50,635 bases of DNA from contig JBCCFN010000002.1 in the NCBI GenBank assembly GCA_039029715.1, positions 1 through 50,635 of the forward strand, given 5' to 3'. Position 1 is the first letter of the stretch; the number at the start of each line of letters is the position of its first letter. Source of the stretch: Actinomycetota bacterium (GTDB taxonomy: Bacteria; Actinomycetota; Acidimicrobiia; Acidimicrobiales; SZUA-35). The notes beneath the pieces were generated by a model. The model did not search any database, was not told the origin of the DNA, and saw nothing but the letters and a program-made list of their open reading frames with translations. The translations under genes were made by a program, and so were the position numbers. This document shows, piece by piece, positions 30,378 to 37,089 of the stretch.

Positions 30378-31031
30378 ATGGGCCCGATGTCTACCGAGGT
30401 CCGAGCCGCCTATGACGCCATGGCCGAGCGCTACGCCGCCCTCTTCCTGACCGACCTCGACCAGGATGACAACGCTCGGGCCTGGTTGGCATCGTTCGCA
30501 GCGCTGGCCGCCGGGCGCCGGGGCCCCGTCGCCGACCTCGGCTGCGGGCCGGGCCACGTGGTCGACCACCTGAGCGGGCTCGGCCTCGACGTCGTCGGCT
30601 ACGACCTCTCGCCGGGCCAGGTCGCCCAGGCCCGCCTGGCCTTCCCGGCCGAGCGATTCGACGTCTGCGACCTGACCGCCATCGATCGACCGGACCGCTC
30701 GCTTGGCGGGATCGTCTCCCGGTACTCGATCATCCACCTCGACCCGTCGACCATCGCGGGCACCTTCGGCGAGTGGTACCGGGTGCTGGAGCGGGGGGCA
30801 CCGGTCCTGGTCTCGTTCTTCGGCTCCCTCACCGCAGACGCCCACGGGACCCCCTTCGACCACAAGGTCGTCACCGCCCACGAACTGTTCCCGGCCGAGA
30901 TCGCCCGGTTGCTGACCACGGTCGGGTTCGGTGACGTCGAGGTCGGCGTCCTACCGGCACCGGACGATGCGCTCCGGCCGTTCGATCAGGCGACGATCAT
31001 GGCCCGCGTCCCCGGGCCGATTCGGCAGTGA
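30378..31031 (+). CDS. class I SAM-dependent methyltransferase
   Basis: Motif I VADLGCGPGHV and post-I VVGYDLSP, in a Methyltransf_11/25-like layout. Confidence 0.8.
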   Translation: MGPMSTEVRAAYDAMAERYAALFLTDLDQDDNARAWLASFAALAAGRRGPVADLGCGPGHVVDHLSGLGLDVVGYDLSPGQVAQARLAFPAERFDVCDLTAIDRPDRSLGGIVSRYSIIHLDPSTIAGTFGEWYRVLERGAPVLVSFFGSLTADAHGTPFDHKVVTAHELFPAEIARLLTTVGFGDVEVGVLPAPDDALRPFDQATIMARVPGPIRQ

Positions 31032-31919
31032 TCAGGAGTCACCCCGCCGGCGCTCCCGGACAGTCCGGAAGGCCTCGATCGTCTGTTGCCTCGCCGCCTC
31101 GACGATGGCCGACCCGGCGTCAGGCCGGGTCCGGGGGAAGCCGTCTGCCGCTTCCAATGCCGCAGCGTCCGGTCGGAGGACCAGGGTCCGACTCCCGGCC
31201 GCCCGAATCGTCCTGACCTCGTCGTCGAGGGTCCGGCGGGCCCGGGCCCGGATCGGTCCCCGGCCGGGCCTCGCCATCGGGGCGGCGATGAGCACGACAT
31301 CGTGGCCTTCGGCCGCGACGACATCGGCATGGGTCGAGGAGGCAACCGCCCCGTCGACGTAGCGGGCACCGTCGATCACCTTCGGCTGGAACACCGCCGG
31401 CACCGCCGAGGTGGCCTCGATGGCATCCCCAAGGGTGCACGGGATCGAATCCCGGCCGAAGACCACGACCTGACCGTCGTCGAGTCGAACGCTCGGGATC
31501 CACAGCGGGTCCGGCCACGGCACGTCAGCGCCGAACCGCCGGAGGAAGATCGTCGGGAAGAACCCGCCGGGCAGCATGCCGACCAGGGCGGTGACCACAC
31601 CGACCTGACCAACCCGGCGGACCAGGCCCGGCGCCACCGGCCGCAGGCTGGACAGCGGGTTGCGAAGTGCGTCGGAGCCGGCGCTCCGCATCCGCTCCTG
31701 GTCCTCACCGCTCGGCGGGGTCGAGATGAGGTCAAGGACCTTCTCGGTCGGGGTCCCGGTCAGCAGCGTGGCGGCGATGGCGGCCCCGGCCGAGGTCCCG
31801 ACGATGCGATCGGCGTTTGCCGGCTCCCGACCGATGGCGTCCCGGACCCCCTCGATGATCCCGAGGTGGTAGGCCCACCCGAGCGGGCCCCCGGCGCCGA
31901 GGACGATGGCGACCGTCAT
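31032..31919 (-). CDS. patatin-like phospholipase
   Basis: Oxyanion GAGGPLGWAYHLG (GxGxxG), nucleophile elbow GTSAGA (GxSxG), and the later DGA of the Ser-Asp dyad (YVDGAV). Confidence 0.85.
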   Translation of the reverse strand: MTVAIVLGAGGPLGWAYHLGIIEGVRDAIGREPANADRIVGTSAGAAIAATLLTGTPTEKVLDLISTPPSGEDQERMRSAGSDALRNPLSSLRPVAPGLVRRVGQVGVVTALVGMLPGGFFPTIFLRRFGADVPWPDPLWIPSVRLDDGQVVVFGRDSIPCTLGDAIEATSAVPAVFQPKVIDGARYVDGAVASSTHADVVAAEGHDVVLIAAPMARPGRGPIRARARRTLDDEVRTIRAAGSRTLVLRPDAAALEAADGFPRTRPDAGSAIVEAARQQTIEAFRTVRERRRGDS

Positions 31920-31944
31920 CGGTCGATCCGGCCCGTCCTGCCGA

Positions 31945-32709
31945 TCATGCGAAGTGGCTCGTCGGTCGAGGCTGGCGTTCCCCGTCGATGTCGATGTCGA
32001 CGATCTCGTTGTAGAAGCAGATCAGACCGGCGATCGGCGTCACCTCCGGCCGGGGCAGGACGTAGGTCCAGGCGATGTCGTCAACCGTCCGATCCCCGAC
32101 CCGGGCCGAGTAGAAGTCGGCGTCCCCTTTGTAGGGGCAGGACGCCCGGCGGCGACTGCGGGTCAGCAGCTCGAGGTTGACGTCGGTCATCGGCAGGTAG
32201 AACCGGGCCGGCGCGCCGGTCTCGAACAGCACGGTCGGCTTGCGGGAGTTTGCGAGCTCCACCCCGTCGAGGGAGACGACGACATGGCGGGACGATGCGA
32301 GTGCATCGACCCGCGTGTATGGGCTGCGGGGATGGACGAAGACCTCGACGTCCTCCTCGAACCAGTGGTCGAGGGCCTTGAAGTCGATCGTCACGTAGTC
32401 GGCGAGCTCGGGGTCGTCCGGGTAGCCGCGGGCGGCGCCGGCCAACACGCGATCTCCGACGACGAGGTCGTAGCGGACCGCACCCGCCGGGAGAGCGGGA
32501 CCGCGATCGGGCGCGGCCGCAGCCATCAGCTCGGCCGCGACGTGGTCACGGGGGAAGAACCACCACGGCCAGTACGGGAGCTCCCAGACGAACAGGTACC
32601 GCCGGGAGTCGACGATCGTCCGGCCGTCGAGCAGCCCCCGGATCCACTTGTCGCCGGGAACCAGCTGTGGGACCCCAGCCGGTGTGGTCGACGGTTCGTC
32701 AACGGCCAT
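31945..32709 (-). CDS. tandem DUF427 domain protein
   Basis: The C-terminal copy is canonical: VVVSLDGVELANSRKPTVLFETGAPARFYLP...CPYKGDADFYS...DIAWTYVLPRPEVTPIAGLICFYNE. The N-terminal copy is degenerate. Confidence 0.75.
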   Translation of the reverse strand: MAVDEPSTTPAGVPQLVPGDKWIRGLLDGRTIVDSRRYLFVWELPYWPWWFFPRDHVAAELMAAAAPDRGPALPAGAVRYDLVVGDRVLAGAARGYPDDPELADYVTIDFKALDHWFEEDVEVFVHPRSPYTRVDALASSRHVVVSLDGVELANSRKPTVLFETGAPARFYLPMTDVNLELLTRSRRRASCPYKGDADFYSARVGDRTVDDIAWTYVLPRPEVTPIAGLICFYNEIVDIDIDGERQPRPTSHFA

Positions 32710-32724
32710 CGCGCTCCTCCTCGA

Positions 32725-34656
32725 CTAGACGAGCGAAGCGTCTGCCACGATGTCGACCAGCGACGGCCCGTCGTAGGCAAGTGCCTCGGCCAGGGCGCCG
32801 GCCAGCTGGTCCGCCCGCTCGACCCGGAACCCTCGGGCTCCGCAGTTCTCGGCGAACTGGGCGAAATTGGGGTTGTGGAGGCTGGTCTGCCACACGTCCA
32901 GGTCGGCCGATCGCTGCTCCTTGGAGATCTTGCCCAGCTCCCGGTTGTCGAGCAGCACGTGGGTGATGTTCATGCCGTACTTCACCGCCGTGGTCAGCTC
33001 CATGGCGTACTGCCCGAACCCGCCGTCGCCGGACACGCTGACCACCTGCCGACCGGTCCTGGCCGCCCACGCCCCCATCGCAGCCGGGAACCCGAACCCG
33101 ATCGACCCCAGGTAGCCGGACATCAACACGGTGTGGCGGTCGACCTCGAAGTATCGGCCGAAGCTGTAAGTGTTGTTGCCGACGTCGACGGCGATGACGG
33201 CGTCTGGATCGACCGCATCGGTCAGGGCGGCGAAGATAGCGGCCGAGGCGACCCCGGCCCCCTTGTCATCTCCGAGGCGGGATGCCTTCTCGGCCCGCCA
33301 GATCGACCAGCGCGCCGCGACCTCGGCCGCATGATCCGTGGTCGCCACCTCGGCCGGGAGGGCGTCCTGCATGGCCGAGGCCACCACCCCGACGTGACCG
33401 AGGACGCCGACGGTGACCGGATGGAACCGGCCGAGGGCCATCGGGTCGTAGTCGACCTGGACGATCGGCTTGTAGGGCGCAATGCCGGTGTGGTTGGCGA
33501 ACGAGGCCCCGAAGGCGACGATCAGGTCACTCTCGTTCATGAACCAGCTGGCGATCGGGGTCCCGGACCGGCCGAGGACCCCACACCCGAGGGGGTGGTG
33601 GTCGCTGATCTGGCCCTTGCCCTTGAACGTTGTCGCCACCGGGGCCCCGAGCCGCTCGGCCAGGGCGATGATCGGCTCCATGTCGTGGCGGGCGCCGGGG
33701 CCGACGAGGCTCAGCGGCCGCTCCGCCCGGGTCAGCAACGCCTTGGCCTCCTCGAGCGCCTCGGCCGGCGGCGGAGTGGTCCGGACCCCGGTCCGGCCCT
33801 CCGGACCCGAGGCCGGGGCGTCGCTTGGCTGGATCTGGACCTCGTCCGGAAAGATGAGGTGGCTGACGTCTGCCTCGACCAGGGCGGTCTTGCACGCCAG
33901 GTTCATCAACTCGGTGTGGTTGGATCCGGCCAGCACCGTTTTGCTGTAGCGGGCGACGTCTGCGAACGCGGCCTCCAGGTCCAGGTCCTGGAACGCCCCC
34001 CGCCCCATGGTCGACGACGGGACCTGACCGGACAGGGCCAGCACCGGGGCCCGGTCGACCTTGGCGTCGTACAGGCCGGTCAACAGGTTGGTCGAGCCGG
34101 GGCCGGCGATCCCGAAACAGGCGGCCGGACGGCCGGTCAGCTTCCCGTAGCCGGAGGCGGCGAAGGCGGCCGCCCCCTCGTGGCGGACGCCGATGTAGAT
34201 CAGGTCGCCCCGACCCTCGGCCACCCGGAGGGCATCGCCGAACCCGAGATTGGAGTGACCGACGATGCCGAACACCGCGTCCACACCCCAGGCCGTCATC
34301 GTCTCGACCATCGCGTCTGACACGGTCCGGGCCGGGGTCTCCTCGTCCGGCAGGACGGCGTAGACCCCGTCGTCCCGGACCTCGACCTGGTACGAGGCCG
34401 GGGCATCATCGAACGGGGGCGGCGGCTTGCCAGTGAGCGGATCGTAGTCGTAGCCGTGCCACGGGCAACGGAGATGCCCGCCCTCGATCGAGCCCTCGCC
34501 GAGCGGGCCGCCCTGGTGGGGGCAGTGGTTGTCGAGACAGCCGTACTTGCCGTCGTGATGGGTGACCGCCAGCGTGTGGTGGCCGATCGTCACCGTGGTG
34601 ACCCGACCCTCGGGAAGCTCATCGTGATCGAGGATCTTGTGTGCGGTTTCGCTCAC
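32725..34656 (-). CDS. Rieske [2Fe-2S] domain fused to a thiamine-pyrophosphate enzyme (pyruvate oxidase / acetolactate synthase superfamily)
   Basis: N-terminal CPHQGGPL...CPWHGYDY (CxH...CxxH). Then the TPP Pyr domain GVDAVFGIVGHSNLGF...GPGSTNLLTGLYDA, a middle domain, and the PP domain with GDGGFGQYAMELTTAVKYGMNITHVLLDN (GDG-x24-27-N). Confidence 0.85.
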   Translation of the reverse strand: MSETAHKILDHDELPEGRVTTVTIGHHTLAVTHHDGKYGCLDNHCPHQGGPLGEGSIEGGHLRCPWHGYDYDPLTGKPPPPFDDAPASYQVEVRDDGVYAVLPDEETPARTVSDAMVETMTAWGVDAVFGIVGHSNLGFGDALRVAEGRGDLIYIGVRHEGAAAFAASGYGKLTGRPAACFGIAGPGSTNLLTGLYDAKVDRAPVLALSGQVPSSTMGRGAFQDLDLEAAFADVARYSKTVLAGSNHTELMNLACKTALVEADVSHLIFPDEVQIQPSDAPASGPEGRTGVRTTPPPAEALEEAKALLTRAERPLSLVGPGARHDMEPIIALAERLGAPVATTFKGKGQISDHHPLGCGVLGRSGTPIASWFMNESDLIVAFGASFANHTGIAPYKPIVQVDYDPMALGRFHPVTVGVLGHVGVVASAMQDALPAEVATTDHAAEVAARWSIWRAEKASRLGDDKGAGVASAAIFAALTDAVDPDAVIAVDVGNNTYSFGRYFEVDRHTVLMSGYLGSIGFGFPAAMGAWAARTGRQVVSVSGDGGFGQYAMELTTAVKYGMNITHVLLDNRELGKISKEQRSADLDVWQTSLHNPNFAQFAENCGARGFRVERADQLAGALAEALAYDGPSLVDIVADASLV

Positions 34657-34811
34657 CGTCGCAGACCTCCGTGGGTTGGGCGAGGCTGAGCAGGAACGTT
34701 ACCTCGCCGGTCCCGGTAGAAGCTCGACGACTCATGGTCGAATTCAGTCACGGGTGCGATCACCGCCGGCCGATTCGAGGTCATCGCCCGAGGCGCCGGA
34801 CGGTCGGGGCC

Positions 34812-34829
34812 ATGGGCCGATCGGCCCAT
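34812..34829. promoter_or_regulatory. perfect 18-bp palindrome ATGGGCCGATCGGCCCAT (candidate operator or hairpin)
   Basis: Verified by reverse-complementing by hand. A related site, GGGCCG-CT-CGGCCC, lies at 34870-34883. Both sit in the 282-nt divergent intergenic region. Confidence 0.4.
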
Positions 34830-34938
34830 CCGGAGAGGTGAGGTGTCCTCCGACCATGTGCTTCGGGCTGGGCCGCTCGGCCCGACCTCGGTCGAGTCCA
34901 TTGCCCGGGTTTGAGGGCCTCGGTACGTTCGGCGAAGG

Positions 34939-37089
34939 ATGAGCCAGAATCACCGCCTCCTCCGCCCGTTTGTCGTCCTCGTGGTCGTGGTCACCGCACT
35001 GATAGGCGTGACGCCGGCCTCGGCCGAGACCGAGAGCCGATGGGACGGCGAGCTGACCGTCGCCGATGCGGTCTCCCTCAGTGACGTCCCGGCCAACCGT
35101 TGGGGTCTGACAACCCTGGACCGAGGGTCGGAGTTCTTCCAGTACTACTCCCACGCCTTCGCCATCACCCAGATCGGCGACCGGCTCTACGTCGGCGGCA
35201 AGTTCCGCGACGTGACAAACGGTTCGCGGACCGAGTCCCAGCCGTTCCTGGCCGCCTTCGATGTCGACACCGGCCAGTGGATCGAGTCGTTCCGTCCGTC
35301 GATCGACTGGAGCGTGTTCGCCCTCGTCCCCTCACCCAACGGTGACCGGCTGTTCGTCGGGGGCGAGTTCACAACCGCCGGCGGTCCGAACACCGCGGCC
35401 TTCGCCGCCCTCGACCCGACCACGGGGCGGATCGATCCGACCTTCGACGTGCGGGTCACCCGGGAGTGGAGCGACGATGCGCCCCGCATTCACGCCATGG
35501 ACATCCAAGGCGACTGGCTCTACCTCGGCGGGGCGTTCTCCCACGTCACCGGCAACGGCGAGCGGATCCAGAGCTCCCGGGCGGCCAGGGTGTCGCTGAG
35601 TACCGGCCGACCGGATCGGGCCTGGCGGCCGAACGTGGCCGGCGGCTCGATCTGGGAGATCGAGGCCAGCGCCCGGGGCGACCGGGTCTATCTCGGCGGC
35701 ACCCACCTGATGACCCAGGGCCAGGTGACCAAGGGGTTCAGCGTGGTCGATGCGGCAACCGGCCAGCTGGTCCCTGGCATCCCGCTCGATTACGGCGTGA
35801 CCAACCACACCCATCGGGGTGGGGTCGAGGGCTACGTGTTCGTCGCAACCATCGTCGAGGTCGGCGATCGGGTCTTCACCGGCGGCCAGAAGCACAACCT
35901 GGTCTTCGCCGAGCGTGACGACATGGGCGTCCTCCGGACCCACCAGACCAACCGTTGGACCGCTCGCTGGGGCGGCGGTGACATGCAGGCCATGGCCCTG
36001 GCCGGGGATGTGTTGTTCGTCAGCTGTCACTGCTGGGGCCTGGTCCACGAGCTCGGCACCGACTACTACCGGGACGCCCGGGGCGTCCTGGCCTTCGATG
36101 CCCGGACCGGCGACCACCTGGAGGGCTATGCCCCGGAGATGGGCGGCGTCGACGGACCGTGGGCCCTCCACGTGGCGGACGACGACTGCCTGTGGATCGG
36201 GAGCGACATCACCCGGTCCGGTGGAGTCCGGACCAACGGCCTGATCAGGCACTGCCCGGCCGACGGTCCCCGGACCCCGGCCGATCGTCCGGCCCCCGCC
36301 GGTCCCCCGGCCGTCCCGCCGGCCCCGGCTCCGGCCGGCCCCCCGGCGGTCCCGAGCGGGTTGACCGCTGCGGCCGACAATGGGGCGGCCGCCCTGTCCT
36401 GGGACGCGGTGGCCGGCGCCCGGAGCTACCTGGTCTACCGGAACGGCGCCTACATCGGCTGGACCACGGACACCTCGTATCGGGACGCCGGCGTCCCGGC
36501 GGGGCCGGTGCAGTACCGGCTGCGGGCGACCAATGCCGACGGCCGAAGCGACCGGACCGAGCCGGTCACGGTCGTGGTTCAGGACCTCGCACCACTGACC
36601 GCCCCGACCGACGTGGTGGCGAGCGCGAACGGCGCAGACGCCGTGGTGACCTGGACCGAGGTTCCGGCCGCCCGTAGCTACCTCGTGTATCGCAACGGCG
36701 CCTACATCGGCTGGTCGGCGTCGCCGACCCTCCGGGATGTCCAGCCCCCGAACGGGACGCTCAGCTACCGGGTCCGGGCCGTCAACGGCGGCGACCGGAG
36801 CCCACGGTCGGAGCCGGCGGAGCTGACCCTGCGTCCGGCCGGCCCGCCTGCGGTCCCGACCGGCCTGACCGCCACGGTCGACGGCGGCGAGGTCACGCTC
36901 GGCTGGACCGGCGGTGAGGACGTCCGCTCGTACCTGATCTACCGCGACGGCGGCTACGTCGGTTGGACCGCCGGACCGTCCTTCGTCGACACCGGGGTGC
37001 CGGCCGGCGATCGGGTCTATGAGATCCGGGCCACCAACCGTCACGGCCGGAGCGACAAGTCGGCACCGGTCTCGGCGACGGTCCGCTAA
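34939..37089 (+). CDS. secreted beta-propeller (DUF5122/delta-60-repeat-like) protein with three C-terminal FN3-like repeats
   Basis: Signal peptide LLRPFVVLVVVVTALIGVTPASA. Repeated LYVGGxF...G...AAxD..TG blades. Three repeats of about 80 aa (about 36340-37086) share SYLVYRNGAYIGW / SYLIYRDGGYVGW cores. Confidence 0.75.
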   Translation: MSQNHRLLRPFVVLVVVVTALIGVTPASAETESRWDGELTVADAVSLSDVPANRWGLTTLDRGSEFFQYYSHAFAITQIGDRLYVGGKFRDVTNGSRTESQPFLAAFDVDTGQWIESFRPSIDWSVFALVPSPNGDRLFVGGEFTTAGGPNTAAFAALDPTTGRIDPTFDVRVTREWSDDAPRIHAMDIQGDWLYLGGAFSHVTGNGERIQSSRAARVSLSTGRPDRAWRPNVAGGSIWEIEASARGDRVYLGGTHLMTQGQVTKGFSVVDAATGQLVPGIPLDYGVTNHTHRGGVEGYVFVATIVEVGDRVFTGGQKHNLVFAERDDMGVLRTHQTNRWTARWGGGDMQAMALAGDVLFVSCHCWGLVHELGTDYYRDARGVLAFDARTGDHLEGYAPEMGGVDGPWALHVADDDCLWIGSDITRSGGVRTNGLIRHCPADGPRTPADRPAPAGPPAVPPAPAPAGPPAVPSGLTAAADNGAAALSWDAVAGARSYLVYRNGAYIGWTTDTSYRDAGVPAGPVQYRLRATNADGRSDRTEPVTVVVQDLAPLTAPTDVVASANGADAVVTWTEVPAARSYLVYRNGAYIGWSASPTLRDVQPPNGTLSYRVRAVNGGDRSPRSEPAELTLRPAGPPAVPTGLTATVDGGEVTLGWTGGEDVRSYLIYRDGGYVGWTAGPSFVDTGVPAGDRVYEIRATNRHGRSDKSAPVSATVR

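Follow-up and report, generated by a model that had tools for sequence, protein, structure and literature searches.

To our knowledge, the characterised ThDP/flavin pyruvate oxidases deliver their electrons to O2 or to a membrane quinone, and among ThDP enzymes a connection to iron-sulfur centres is well known only for the PFORs, which are unrelated and mostly oxygen-sensitive. With pyruvate as substrate, PoxB and PQO form acetate and CO2, and the electrons go to an acceptor other than O2; in PFOR a proximal [4Fe-4S] cluster accepts electrons from the hydroxyalkyl-ThDP intermediate. Within the window, i.e. the whole stretch of 50,635 nucleotides that was analysed, we found a gene whose product joins a Rieske [2Fe-2S] domain to a ThDP enzyme resembling the pyruvate oxidases. 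The gene and its putative ribosome-binding site were located as follows:

32725..34656, minus strand, whole gene of a 643-aa Rieske + ThDP (POX/PoxB-like) fusion, GTG start at 34656-34654 and TGA stop at 32725-32727
34666..34670, minus strand, Shine-Dalgarno-like GGAGG, 9 nt upstream of the GTG, read from the sequence

Translation of the minus strand from 34656 to 32725 gave one unbroken open reading frame. The plus strand of the same interval contains a stop and was ruled out as a gene, and the plus-strand reading frame at 31906-34320 (804 aa) represents the antisense shadow cast by this high-GC gene. The initial annotation had described a single polypeptide in which a Rieske domain precedes a TPP enzyme, and had raised the possibility that a frameshift in the assembly had joined two separate genes. 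The first was borne out by the intact frame and by Pfam matches to Rieske followed by TPP_enzyme_N, M and C; the second was not the case, since hundreds of independent assemblies show the fused gene as one open frame. All 24 sampled genomes of the same genus (24/24) had a stop-free frame over query residues ~1-643, and the four Pfam domains were found in a single chain in 118 of the best-scoring 119 protein clusters, which together argue that the fusion is not an assembly artefact. The exception (cluster P0114, locus L107) comes from one MAG and carries an in-frame TGA in the conserved Trp66 codon. This locus is annotated as two genes, and a natural two-gene form was ruled out from the lone in-frame stop. 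The search for the Rieske+TPP_enzyme_N/M/C architecture that had been suggested, with its taxonomic spread, found the one-chain form in more than 120 protein clusters and at least 590 species genomes from Acidimicrobiia, Acidobacteriota, Myxococcota, Gemmatimonadota and Gammaproteobacteria.

The head of the protein comprises the following features:

34342..34656, minus strand, N-terminal Rieske [2Fe-2S] domain of the soluble ferredoxin type, residues 1-105 (Pfam match 7-77)
34501..34524, minus strand, Rieske box I CPHQGGPL, residues 45-52, ligands C45 and H47, from motif reading and alignment
34444..34467, minus strand, Rieske box II CPWHGYDY, residues 64-71, ligands C64 and H67, from motif reading and alignment

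The Pfam Rieske model (PF00355) matched with an E value of 2.8e-16 (59.6 bits against a cut-off of 20.3), and the full ligand set that had been read in the first ~100 residues lies within this match. The four ligands were kept in 180 of 181 aligned homologues, the remaining one having a gap there, so that all of the 180 covering sequences retain them and a lack of conservation, which would have spoken against the original reading, was not seen. Both cluster loops were at least 97% conserved in the 181 aligned sequences, and residues 1-105 were modelled by AF2 with pLDDT 86-97. The CPHQGG and CPWHG boxes lack the disulfide cysteine pair of the high-potential bc1-type Rieske proteins, and by sequence the head is of the soluble low-potential ferredoxin class. 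Its nearest solved relatives are the Rieske ferredoxins of oxygenase systems (T4moC, CarAc, NDO ferredoxin and BphF), to which it aligns over its full length (E values from 5e-9 to 4e-6) and with which it shares the CPH...C(P)xH boxes without bc1-type disulfide cysteines. These ferredoxins are free-standing shuttles between reductase and oxygenase, whereas the domain described here is covalently joined to a ThDP enzyme.

The remainder of the chain is a complete three-domain TPP enzyme, as had been proposed:

33976..34326, minus strand, PYR domain (TPP_enzyme_N, PF02776), residues 111-227, Pfam E value 7e-34
33373..33753, minus strand, middle domain (TPP_enzyme_M, PF00205), residues 302-428, Pfam E value 6e-29
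32749..33186, minus strand, PP domain (TPP_enzyme_C, PF02775), residues 491-636, Pfam E value 1.5e-36
32944..33030, minus strand, ThDP/Mg motif G543-D544-G545-x25-N571, followed by L574-G575-K576 and E580, from motif and alignment

The three domains occur in the order typical of the POX/AHAS superfamily and all score far above the Pfam cut-offs. Among the motifs quoted in the initial annotation, CPHQGGPL, CPWHGYDY, GIVGHSNLGF and GPGSTNLLTG are present, but the spacing in the motif given as GDG-x26-N is x25, which lies within the x(24-27) of the superfamily motif. The cofactor-activating glutamate of the PYR domain is Glu160 (codon 34177-34179). This residue, the G543-D544-G545-x25-N571 motif, F222, Q223, V492 and E580 were invariant or nearly so in the 181 fused homologues. 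The AF2 model of the whole protein had a mean pLDDT of 94.3 and a pTM of 0.91, and Foldseek returned TM values of 0.8-0.9 to POX, PoxB and PQO, with LpPOX, EcPoxB and CgPQO as the top matches.

The same three enzymes were the best matches in sequence (E values of 1e-66 for LpPOX, 1e-63 for EcPoxB and 5e-58 for CgPQO). LpPOX (SpxB type; EC 1.2.3.3; PDB 1POX, 1Y9D, 2EZ4, 4FEE) aligned over residues 114-638, has the same three-domain core (TM 0.83 by target), and the counterparts of its E59, F121, Q122, R264, V394 and E483 are conserved in the query family, E580 being aligned with Glu483. The identity is ~28%, however, and the two proteins differ at both ends. The query chain ends at the equivalent of LpPOX residue ~549 of 603 and thus lacks a C-terminal extension of ~55 residues, and it carries the extra N-terminal Rieske domain, which is why O2 is probably not the acceptor. 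EcPoxB (PDB 3EY9/3EYA) and CgPQO (PDB 9EV3-9EV6), both EC 1.2.5.1, have a ThDP/FAD core to which the query core, probably also FAD-containing, shows high fold similarity. EcPoxB extends ~41 residues beyond the end of the query, which therefore lacks the C-terminal membrane-binding peptide of PoxB, and the proposed electron outlet of the query is a fused iron-sulfur domain as opposed to the membrane quinone of PoxB and PQO. Gly35 of LpPOX is replaced by His134, part of a family-specific H134-S135 pair in the PYR domain, and Lys576 (in 179/181 homologues) replaces Phe479, the equivalent of EcPoxB Phe465; we take both phenylalanines to lie between ThDP and FAD.

The best NCBIfam model was the pyruvate oxidase PRK08611, and no curated NCBIfam equivalog cut-off was reached, either by the pyruvate oxidase models (NF006377, 384.8 bits against 742; TIGR02720, 306.6 against 637.85), by the PoxB/PQO model NF006591 (297.7 against 792) or by the AHAS models (283-292 bits; TIGR00118, 282.9 against 538.35). 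A full-text literature search found no paper on a Rieske-POX-like fusion family, and the possibility that the architecture had already been assigned a function was not supported by either search. As to the flavin site, the middle domain has G319-P-G321-A and a loop G362-R363-S364-G365 that aligns with N263-R264-V265-A266 of LpPOX; G319-x-G321-A, D377 and D402 are conserved and shared with EcPoxB. Two differences count against the reading proposed below: the AHAS stretch RFDDR reads SFANH in the query, and Lys576 takes the place of the Phe of LpPOX and EcPoxB. When used alone, the middle domain matched mostly FAD-binding members (AHAS, CDH, POX, Gcl, PQO), and the FAD-free catabolic ALS entries, which scored well with the whole protein, fell outside the top 60. 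The matches of the middle domain suggest that the protein is probably a FAD-containing enzyme of the POX/PoxB branch.

The nearest relatives of the family bear on the role of the head. In an exhaustive search combined with Pfam, 4/5 of the nearest full-length relatives without a Rieske domain had an N-terminal rubredoxin, and one relative (P0123) had a Fer4_19 and two zf-CDGSH domains ahead of its Rieske domain. The rubredoxin-fused and multi-cluster relatives (P0128, P0132, P0139, P0147 and P0162; P0123) have the same truncated POX-like core (39-46% identity). In the rubredoxin forms, too, the N-terminus is taken by a one-electron iron centre; they differ in having an Fe(Cys)4 head instead of the Rieske [2Fe-2S] and a Lys where the query has W371 of the predicted docking surface. 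A quick maximum-likelihood tree put ten Rieske-fused and two rubredoxin-fused cores (P0128 and P0132) in one clade (SH-aLRT 100, stem 0.93), with EcPoxB outside it.

A co-fold of residues 1-105 against residues 106-643, run with FAD and 2Fe-2S riding along as unscored small molecules, gave a score of 0.85, compared with 0.06 for the best of three controls. This mark was reached by 58/80 solved complexes and by 2/110 mismatched pairs, a calibration that holds only roughly here because our own alignment was used and small molecules were added. Three runs agreed in at least 95% of contacts, with a partner pLDDT of at least 91. The predicted interface comprises residues 43-44, 49-51, 54-56, 63 and 65-69 on the Rieske side and 362-374, 391/393, 452-459, 497/501, 579-587 and 641/643 on the body side, and most of these residues are at least 98% conserved. 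In this predicted pose the cluster loops rest on the opening of the active-site channel, where they meet invariant residues. Enzymes of this family act as dimers or tetramers and the docking was computed on a monomer, so the docked head could clash with a second subunit; if permanently docked on the channel mouth, it might also hinder substrate entry.

From these results we propose, with a probability of roughly 0.6, that the protein acts in the cytoplasm as a 2-oxo-acid dehydrogenase of the POX/PoxB branch that depends on ThDP and probably contains FAD, and that it carries a Rieske head instead of the C-terminal lid and membrane anchor. A small 2-oxo acid such as pyruvate is the most likely substrate, and the fused Rieske domain probably takes the electrons from its oxidation in place of oxygen or quinone. 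We infer each of these elements: the retention of FAD, the oxidative decarboxylation, the substrate, the direction of electron flow and the acceptor. In such a mechanism, ThDP activated by Glu160 would decarboxylate the 2-oxo acid to a hydroxyalkyl-ThDP carbanion, from which two electrons would pass to the flavin. The electrons would then leave singly through the Rieske cluster, with its ligand loops on the channel mouth, at the counterpart of the site through which, in the homologue AHAS, quinones and herbicides gain access to FAD. The reduced head would finally hand them to partner proteins, in many relatives probably to a neighbouring Rieske-fused glutamate-synthase-like FMN enzyme. The initial idea that the head is a built-in one-electron acceptor or relay has gained support, from the rubredoxin at the same N-terminal position and the extra iron-sulfur domains in one relative, as well as from the soluble and, by sequence, low-potential ferredoxin type of the Rieske domain and its co-fold docking at the channel mouth.

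The neighbourhood of the gene was compared across 80 loci. The genes and spacer next to it in the window are:

34657..34938, no strand, intergenic region of 282 nt between the gene and a divergent secreted-propeller gene, with no Rieske-GltS gene
31945..32709, minus strand, tandem DUF427 (PF04248) protein of 254 aa, downstream and co-oriented, 15-nt gap
31032..31919, minus strand, patatin-like phospholipase of 295 aa, next co-oriented gene, 25-nt gap

No neighbour was conserved across the whole family (80 loci). A gene for a fusion of Rieske and Glu_synthase (FMN) was adjacent in 23/80 loci, which represent several phyla. It usually overlaps the enzyme gene from directly upstream, and in the closest relatives it occupies the position of the intergenic region seen here. 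Two orthologues that have this partner, from L019 and G023, are 86-87% identical to the query protein. The query gene stands without this usual partner: the Rieske-GltS gene was not found in the query genome (77.6% complete), nor a remnant of it in the upstream intergenic region, and it was also absent from two further genomes that have the enzyme (G024, 98% complete; G013, 91% complete). The Glu_synthase-domain genes of the query genome were rejected as the partner, being unrelated (32-39% identity) and without a Rieske part. The tandem DUF427 and patatin genes are lineage-specific neighbours and not family-wide partners; the former was found only in the closest relatives (3/81 sequences scanned; L002, L019, L070, L107) and the latter in 1/81 sequences scanned, L003 and L107 being the only loci with it close to the gene. 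A 268-aa protein (unk268) recurred in 20/80 loci. It matched no Pfam or NCBIfam family, with a weak lead to DUF5996, and its homologue in genome G000 is not linked to the enzyme gene but lies on contig C131, with cobQ and a P450 as neighbours. In the same genome, 0/8 other Rieske-domain reading frames had more than one predicted transmembrane segment when a membrane haem/Rieske partner was sought. Separate ilvBN genes lie beside some homologues, and no ACT-subunit (AHAS small subunit) gene was adjacent to the query gene in the window. A scan of 30800-35000 for promoters and terminators with a simple sigma-70-like model found nothing, and such a scan is uninformative for a high-GC genome.

A more specific form of the proposal, which we advance tentatively and as less likely than not, is that the Rieske or rubredoxin head plugs into the ancestral quinone/herbicide channel and so makes an oxygen-tolerant, soluble 2-oxo-acid:iron-sulfur-protein oxidoreductase that hands single electrons, head to head, to further flavoenzymes with Rieske heads, the glutamate-synthase-like FMN protein being one example. 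If so, neither NAD(P)H nor free ferredoxin nor quinone would be needed for 2-oxo-acid oxidation to drive a reductive reaction, and the result would be an undescribed modular electron-transfer network of Rieske-tagged enzymes.

Other roles of the head were weighed against the same data. It is unlikely that the protein is a non-oxidative ThDP enzyme (an AHAS-like carboligase, lyase or decarboxylase in which FAD is vestigial or structural) whose activity is switched by the Rieske head as a sensor of redox state, O2, NO or iron. AHAS and glyoxylate carboligase do retain FAD without net redox chemistry, the AHAS models score well and some of the loci lie near ilvBNC. In AHAS, moreover, quinones acting at the herbicide site oxidise the FAD and thereby regulate the enzyme (PMC9188596). 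The best matches are nevertheless oxidases and dehydrogenases rather than AHAS, heads exchanged for rubredoxin or extended by CDGSH and 4Fe-4S domains resemble an electron wire more than a sensor, and electron exchange is suggested by how often the gene is paired with one for a second Rieske-headed flavoenzyme.

Rather improbable, too, is a PFOR-like short circuit in which hydroxyalkyl-ThDP gives up its electrons one by one straight to the Rieske cluster, the flavin site being vacant or only structural. The predicted interface includes residues near ThDP, namely R363 (LpPOX R264) and K579/E580 (beside and at LpPOX E483), and the Phe of POX and PoxB is replaced by Lys576, both of which are compatible with this idea. 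Against it, the invariant G319-x-G321-A loop and D377/D402, which EcPoxB also has, are present in the middle domain, and most of the best solved matches of this domain bind FAD. Like the query enzyme as proposed, PFOR/OFOR enzymes oxidatively decarboxylate 2-oxo acids with ThDP and release the electrons through protein-bound iron-sulfur centres, but PFOR belongs to another ThDP family, has [4Fe-4S] clusters and no flavin, uses CoA and is generally oxygen-sensitive. No PFOR family was among the Pfam or NCBIfam matches of the query, and on sequence grounds it is not a PFOR member, the resemblance being functional only.

We consider it very improbable that electrons flow inwards, the head receiving them from a partner and reducing the flavin so that a reductive reaction or a reductive activation can take place at the ThDP site. 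Feeding electrons to a catalytic centre is indeed the usual role of ferredoxin-type Rieske domains in fusions, but no reductase gene is conserved beside the fusion gene, and a Rieske ferredoxin at about -150 mV is too weak to drive the reductive carboxylation of an acyl group. The activity of AHAS depends on its FAD staying reduced (PMC9188596), which fits an activating role of this kind. Finally, that the fusion is an artefact of assembly or annotation, or the Rieske domain a cluster-less structural relic (NirD-like), can practically be dismissed, as a single TGA in place of the Trp66 codon accounts for the two-gene annotation of L107, hundreds of independent assemblies carry the fused frame without interruption, and all four ligands occur in every homologue covering them.

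If the proposed 2-oxo-acid dehydrogenase reading is correct, a covalent one-electron carrier in place of the membrane anchor would add a third means by which the oxidation of 2-oxo acids is coupled to electron transfer. As a single soluble polypeptide with cofactors that are predicted to be visible spectroscopically, the enzyme should be easy to test. The family offers a compact and probably oxygen-tolerant model for electron transfer from ThDP through flavin to an iron-sulfur centre, and it may explain a possible use of the vestigial quinone/herbicide site in AHAS-type enzymes.

The Rieske-TPP gene is a single unbroken ORF of 643 codons on the minus strand, with a GTG start codon at 34656 and a GGAGG sequence nine bases before it. 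The single polypeptide described in the initial annotation was recovered, with the strand corrected to minus; the plus-strand reading of 32725-34656 was rejected as a gene since its translation contains a stop. An antisense 804-aa ORF (31906-34320, plus strand) was likewise rejected as a high-GC shadow ORF. The GC content of the gene (0.69-0.70) is the same as in the remainder of the window, and neither a signal peptide nor a membrane segment was found in the 643-aa protein.

32725-34656, minus strand: Rieske-TPP gene
Residues 7-77: Rieske domain (Pfam, E 2.8e-16, far over cut-off)
Residues 45-52: Rieske box CPHQGGPL
Residues 64-71: Rieske box CPWHGYDY
Residues 111-227: TPP_enzyme_N (Pfam, far over cut-off)
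Residues 302-428: TPP_enzyme_M (Pfam, far over cut-off)
Residues 491-636: TPP_enzyme_C (Pfam, far over cut-off)
G543-D544-G545 to N571: ThDP motif GDG-x25-N

Both Rieske boxes, GIVGHSNLGF and GPGSTNLLTG were found in the translation as originally quoted, and the ThDP motif was present with a spacing of x25 instead of the x26 first given.

Our preferred reading, with a probability of roughly 0.6, is that the protein is a soluble 2-oxo-acid dehydrogenase in which electrons from the 2-oxo acid would pass from ThDP to FAD, from FAD to the fused Rieske cluster and from the cluster out to an external partner. The best solved sequence relatives were pyruvate oxidase of L. plantarum (LpPOX, E 1e-66) and the pyruvate:quinone oxidoreductases of E. 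coli (EcPoxB, 1e-63) and C. glutamicum (CgPQO, 5e-58), and the same trio gave the best Foldseek matches to an AlphaFold2 model (mean pLDDT 94.3, pTM 0.91, 62-sequence alignment). The top NCBIfam model was pyruvate oxidase PRK08611, which scored 385 bits where 742 are required, and none of the curated NCBIfam equivalog cut-offs was reached. The protein is POX/PoxB-like and lies outside every named equivalog. POX-like residues are kept in the active site; E59, F121/Q122, R264, V394 and E483 of LpPOX are kept in the fused family as E160, F222/Q223, R363, V492 and E580. In contrast, Phe479 of LpPOX (Phe465 of EcPoxB) is replaced by an invariant Lys576, and Gly35 of LpPOX (Asp at the aligned EcPoxB position) by an invariant His134. 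The chain stops at the end of the PP domain, whereas LpPOX runs about 55 residues further and EcPoxB about 41, the latter tail being a membrane-binding peptide.

Three independent lines point to the Rieske head (residues 1-105) being an electron-transfer module. When 1.84 billion cluster representatives were searched exhaustively with HMMER, the Rieske-fused family proved compact (representative clusters P0122, 68 %; P0123, 56 %; P0124, 54 %). Of the five full-length relatives that come closest to it from outside, four have, by HMMER and Pfam, an N-terminal rubredoxin where the Rieske domain stands (P0128, 46 %; P0132, 43 %; P0139, 39 %; P0147, 39 %); P0162 is a fifth rubredoxin-fused example. 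In the 873-aa P0123 protein (L105:6001-8622) the TPP core is preceded by zf-CDGSH, Fer4_19 (4Fe-4S), zf-CDGSH and Rieske domains, an arrangement that would string as many as four Fe-S centres along a single ThDP enzyme. A quick maximum-likelihood tree, built from the cores only, grouped ten Rieske-fused and two rubredoxin-fused proteins (P0128, P0132) in one clade on a long stem (SH-aLRT 100), separate from EcPoxB, and the weakly supported neighbours of this clade were the other rubredoxin forms and two unfused proteins. The PoxB tail is missing from all of these relatives. The protein could instead be a non-redox carboligase with the head as a sensor, but this seems fairly unlikely: acetohydroxyacid-synthase-type enzymes (AHAS) and catabolic acetolactate synthases rank below LpPOX, EcPoxB and CgPQO by sequence, and it is difficult to see why one catalytic core should occur with interchangeable one-electron iron centres if the head does not carry electrons.

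Direct transfer from ThDP to the cluster without a flavin, as in PFOR, is a further alternative, and the replacement of Phe by Lys at position 576 and of the AHAS stretch RFDDR by SFANH both counted against FAD retention. Counted for it were G319-x-G321-A, D377 and D402 of the middle domain, which are invariant and common to EcPoxB. The middle domain alone matched mostly FAD-binding structures (AHAS, cyclohexanedione hydrolase, POX, glyoxylate carboligase and PQO), and the FAD-free catabolic acetolactate synthases, which scored well with the whole protein, were absent among the 60 middle-domain matches listed. Retention of FAD is probable from these sequence features, and we regard the flavin-free route as quite improbable.

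The nearest relatives of the head were free-standing soluble Rieske ferredoxins of oxygenases (T4moC, CarAc, naphthalene dioxygenase ferredoxin and BphF), and the disulfide cysteines of high-potential bc1-type Rieske proteins are absent from it. Soluble oxygenase-type Rieske ferredoxins have potentials near -150 mV, low enough to take electrons from a flavin reduced by a 2-oxo acid and too high for the reverse reaction; an inward flow of electrons is very unlikely.

An artefact or a relic lacking the cluster can practically be dismissed given that the four-domain architecture was present in 118 of the best 119 clusters (69-90 % identity, 5.8 billion proteins searched) and that C45, H47, C64 and H67 were kept in 180/180 covering sequences in an alignment of 181 fused homologues. 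All 24 genomes sampled from the genus of the source genome have a matching frame free of stops; in four it is truncated by a contig end, split or weak, and in the rest it is nearly full-length. The frameshift and the unconserved ligands that the initial annotation had named as fatal to the fusion are thus both contradicted. In the alignment of 181 homologues, conservation in the two cluster loops is at least 97 %. Taxonomic spread was surveyed in one genome for each prokaryotic species, and at least 590 relatives were found. Among the best 80, all of them MAGs, Acidimicrobiia predominate, and the remaining labels are Acidobacteriota, Myxococcota, Gemmatimonadota, Gammaproteobacteria (Ca. Thiodiazotropha) and Nitriliruptoraceae; some other families within the order also carry the frame. 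Only one close relative lacks the Rieske part, P0114 (531 aa), and on its contig the conserved Trp66 codon is an in-frame TGA; the split reflects a point change or an error in sequencing and does not represent a natural form with two genes. This is the orthologue at L107:2156-4096 (ENA contig c_000002604065, 86 %), which has TGA for Trp66 (CP*HGYDY) and is therefore annotated as a 65-aa Rieske piece and a 531-aa TPP enzyme.

The head (1-105) was co-folded against the body (106-643) as a monomer with FAD and the 2Fe-2S cluster riding along. Enzymes of this core family work as dimers or tetramers, and the pose represents the monomer only. The score was 0.85 (best of three controls, 0.06), a mark that 58 of 80 solved complexes attained, as did 2 of 110 mismatched pairs; these counts are only rough here because a custom alignment was used and small molecules were included. 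The runs shared at least 95 % of contacts with partner pLDDT of at least 91, and the prediction supports a defined docking of head on body; since the arrangement is absent from solved structures, memory is an unlikely cause. On the head the predicted interface comprises the cluster loops flanking the ligands (43-44, 49-51, 54-56, 63, 65-69) and on the body 362-374, 391/393, 452-459, 497/501, 579-587 and the C-terminus (641/643). Across the fused family, conservation reaches at least 98 % at most positions of the interface (G362, R363, G365, P367, S370, W371, M373, N374, G391, W453, E456, Y497, R501 and K579), W371 of the Rieske forms being Lys in rubredoxin forms. R363/S364 align with LpPOX R264/V265 and A. 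thaliana AHAS M351/H352, and N388/H389 with AHAS D376/R377, AHAS residues that we take to line the herbicide pocket also. E580 is the counterpart of AHAS W574 by the motif register L-G-x-x-x-x-[W/E]. W574 lies in the substrate-access channel and in the herbicide pocket, the site where FAD is oxidised by soluble quinones (PMC9188596). The docked [2Fe-2S] loops would accordingly sit, in the model, at the mouth of the channel leading to flavin and ThDP, and the head would adjoin the C-terminus, whence the POX/PoxB lid and anchor would emerge. Were the head docked permanently, it might get in the way of incoming substrate, and so it may be mobile.

Two genes of the same orientation lie downstream of it in the window, one for a tandem-DUF427 protein after a gap of 15 nt and then one for a patatin-like lipase after a further gap of 25 nt; both are conserved as neighbours only in the closest relatives. 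On the upstream side, 282 nt of intergenic DNA separate Rieske-TPP from a divergent gene for a secreted propeller protein. The tandem-DUF427 gene (31945-32709, minus strand) has at least three paralogues in the source genome (51 %, 36 % and 32 %, on contigs C166, C14 and C416), and we know of no function for the DUF427 family. A 536-aa Rieske and Glu_synthase(FMN) fusion, Rieske-GltS, adjoins Rieske-TPP in 23 of the best 80 loci, mostly directly upstream and often overlapping its start, including loci labelled Acidobacteriota, Myxococcota and Gammaproteobacteria. The closest relatives (genome G023, 87 %; loci L019 and L107, 86 %) have the order Rieske-GltS, Rieske-TPP, tandem DUF427. The L107 cluster reads AraC, Rieske-GltS, Rieske-TPP, tandem DUF427, LigB, Ni_hydr_CYTB membrane cytochrome b, an 88-aa protein and patatin; the window retains Rieske-TPP, tandem DUF427 and patatin only, and looks like a reduced version of it. 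Rieske-GltS was not found anywhere in the source assembly (77.6 % complete). Rieske-TPP occurs without a Rieske-GltS match in genomes G024 (98 % complete), G013 (91 %) and G034 (97 %), and Rieske-GltS without fused Rieske-TPP in G016 (96 %), so the GltS-like partner is frequent and not obligatory. Two congeners have a Rieske-TPP with 80-82 % identity to that of the window, and there the directly upstream gene (G009:C5:143520-144752, G021:C29:12156-13382) matches only residues ~126-535 of Rieske-GltS; the N-terminus of this partner appears to be either different or absent.

A soluble protein of about 235 aa adjoins Rieske-TPP in 20 of the best 80 loci (e.g. L023:3272-3985); it matched no Pfam or NCBIfam family, a weak resemblance to DUF5996 being the only lead. 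Its homologue in the source genome (C131:1651-2361, 43 % identity) is unlinked, beside cobQ and a P450 gene. Other Rieske proteins of this assembly include a 106-aa free ferredoxin on contig C368 and a protein of about 580 aa on contig C312 (L018:832-2625, minus strand) with a soluble N-terminal Rieske head of the kind found in Rieske-TPP (CPHQG...CQWH). Its body of about 450 aa matched no Pfam family, and in an Atlas structure search its sole match was an actinobacterial 'Rieske (2Fe-2S) protein family protein' cluster (TM 0.91).

In some other Rieske-TPP loci ilvBNC lies nearby. A Peripla_BP_6 gene (Leu/Ile/Val-type binding protein) lies directly downstream at L013:9030-10388 and L102:3737-4852 and also in L103 and L104, that is, 3' of Rieske-TPP and of rubredoxin-TPP genes on unrelated contigs, and may hint at the substrate class. 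Both kinds of neighbour, seen only in other loci, are weak substrate hints.

The statement that no characterised example was known still holds: a literature search turned up no paper describing a ThDP enzyme fused to Rieske or rubredoxin, and names in public records are limited to 'thiamine pyrophosphate-binding protein' or 'Rieske 2Fe-2S domain-containing protein'. We class Rieske-TPP as an enzyme of the POX/PoxB type whose putative built-in electron outlet is new. New are the rubredoxin and multi-cluster sister forms with their tree, the invariant Lys576 and His134, the predicted docking with its interface conservation, mapped onto the AHAS herbicide/quinone pocket, and the presence in the source genome of the enzyme without its usual partner.
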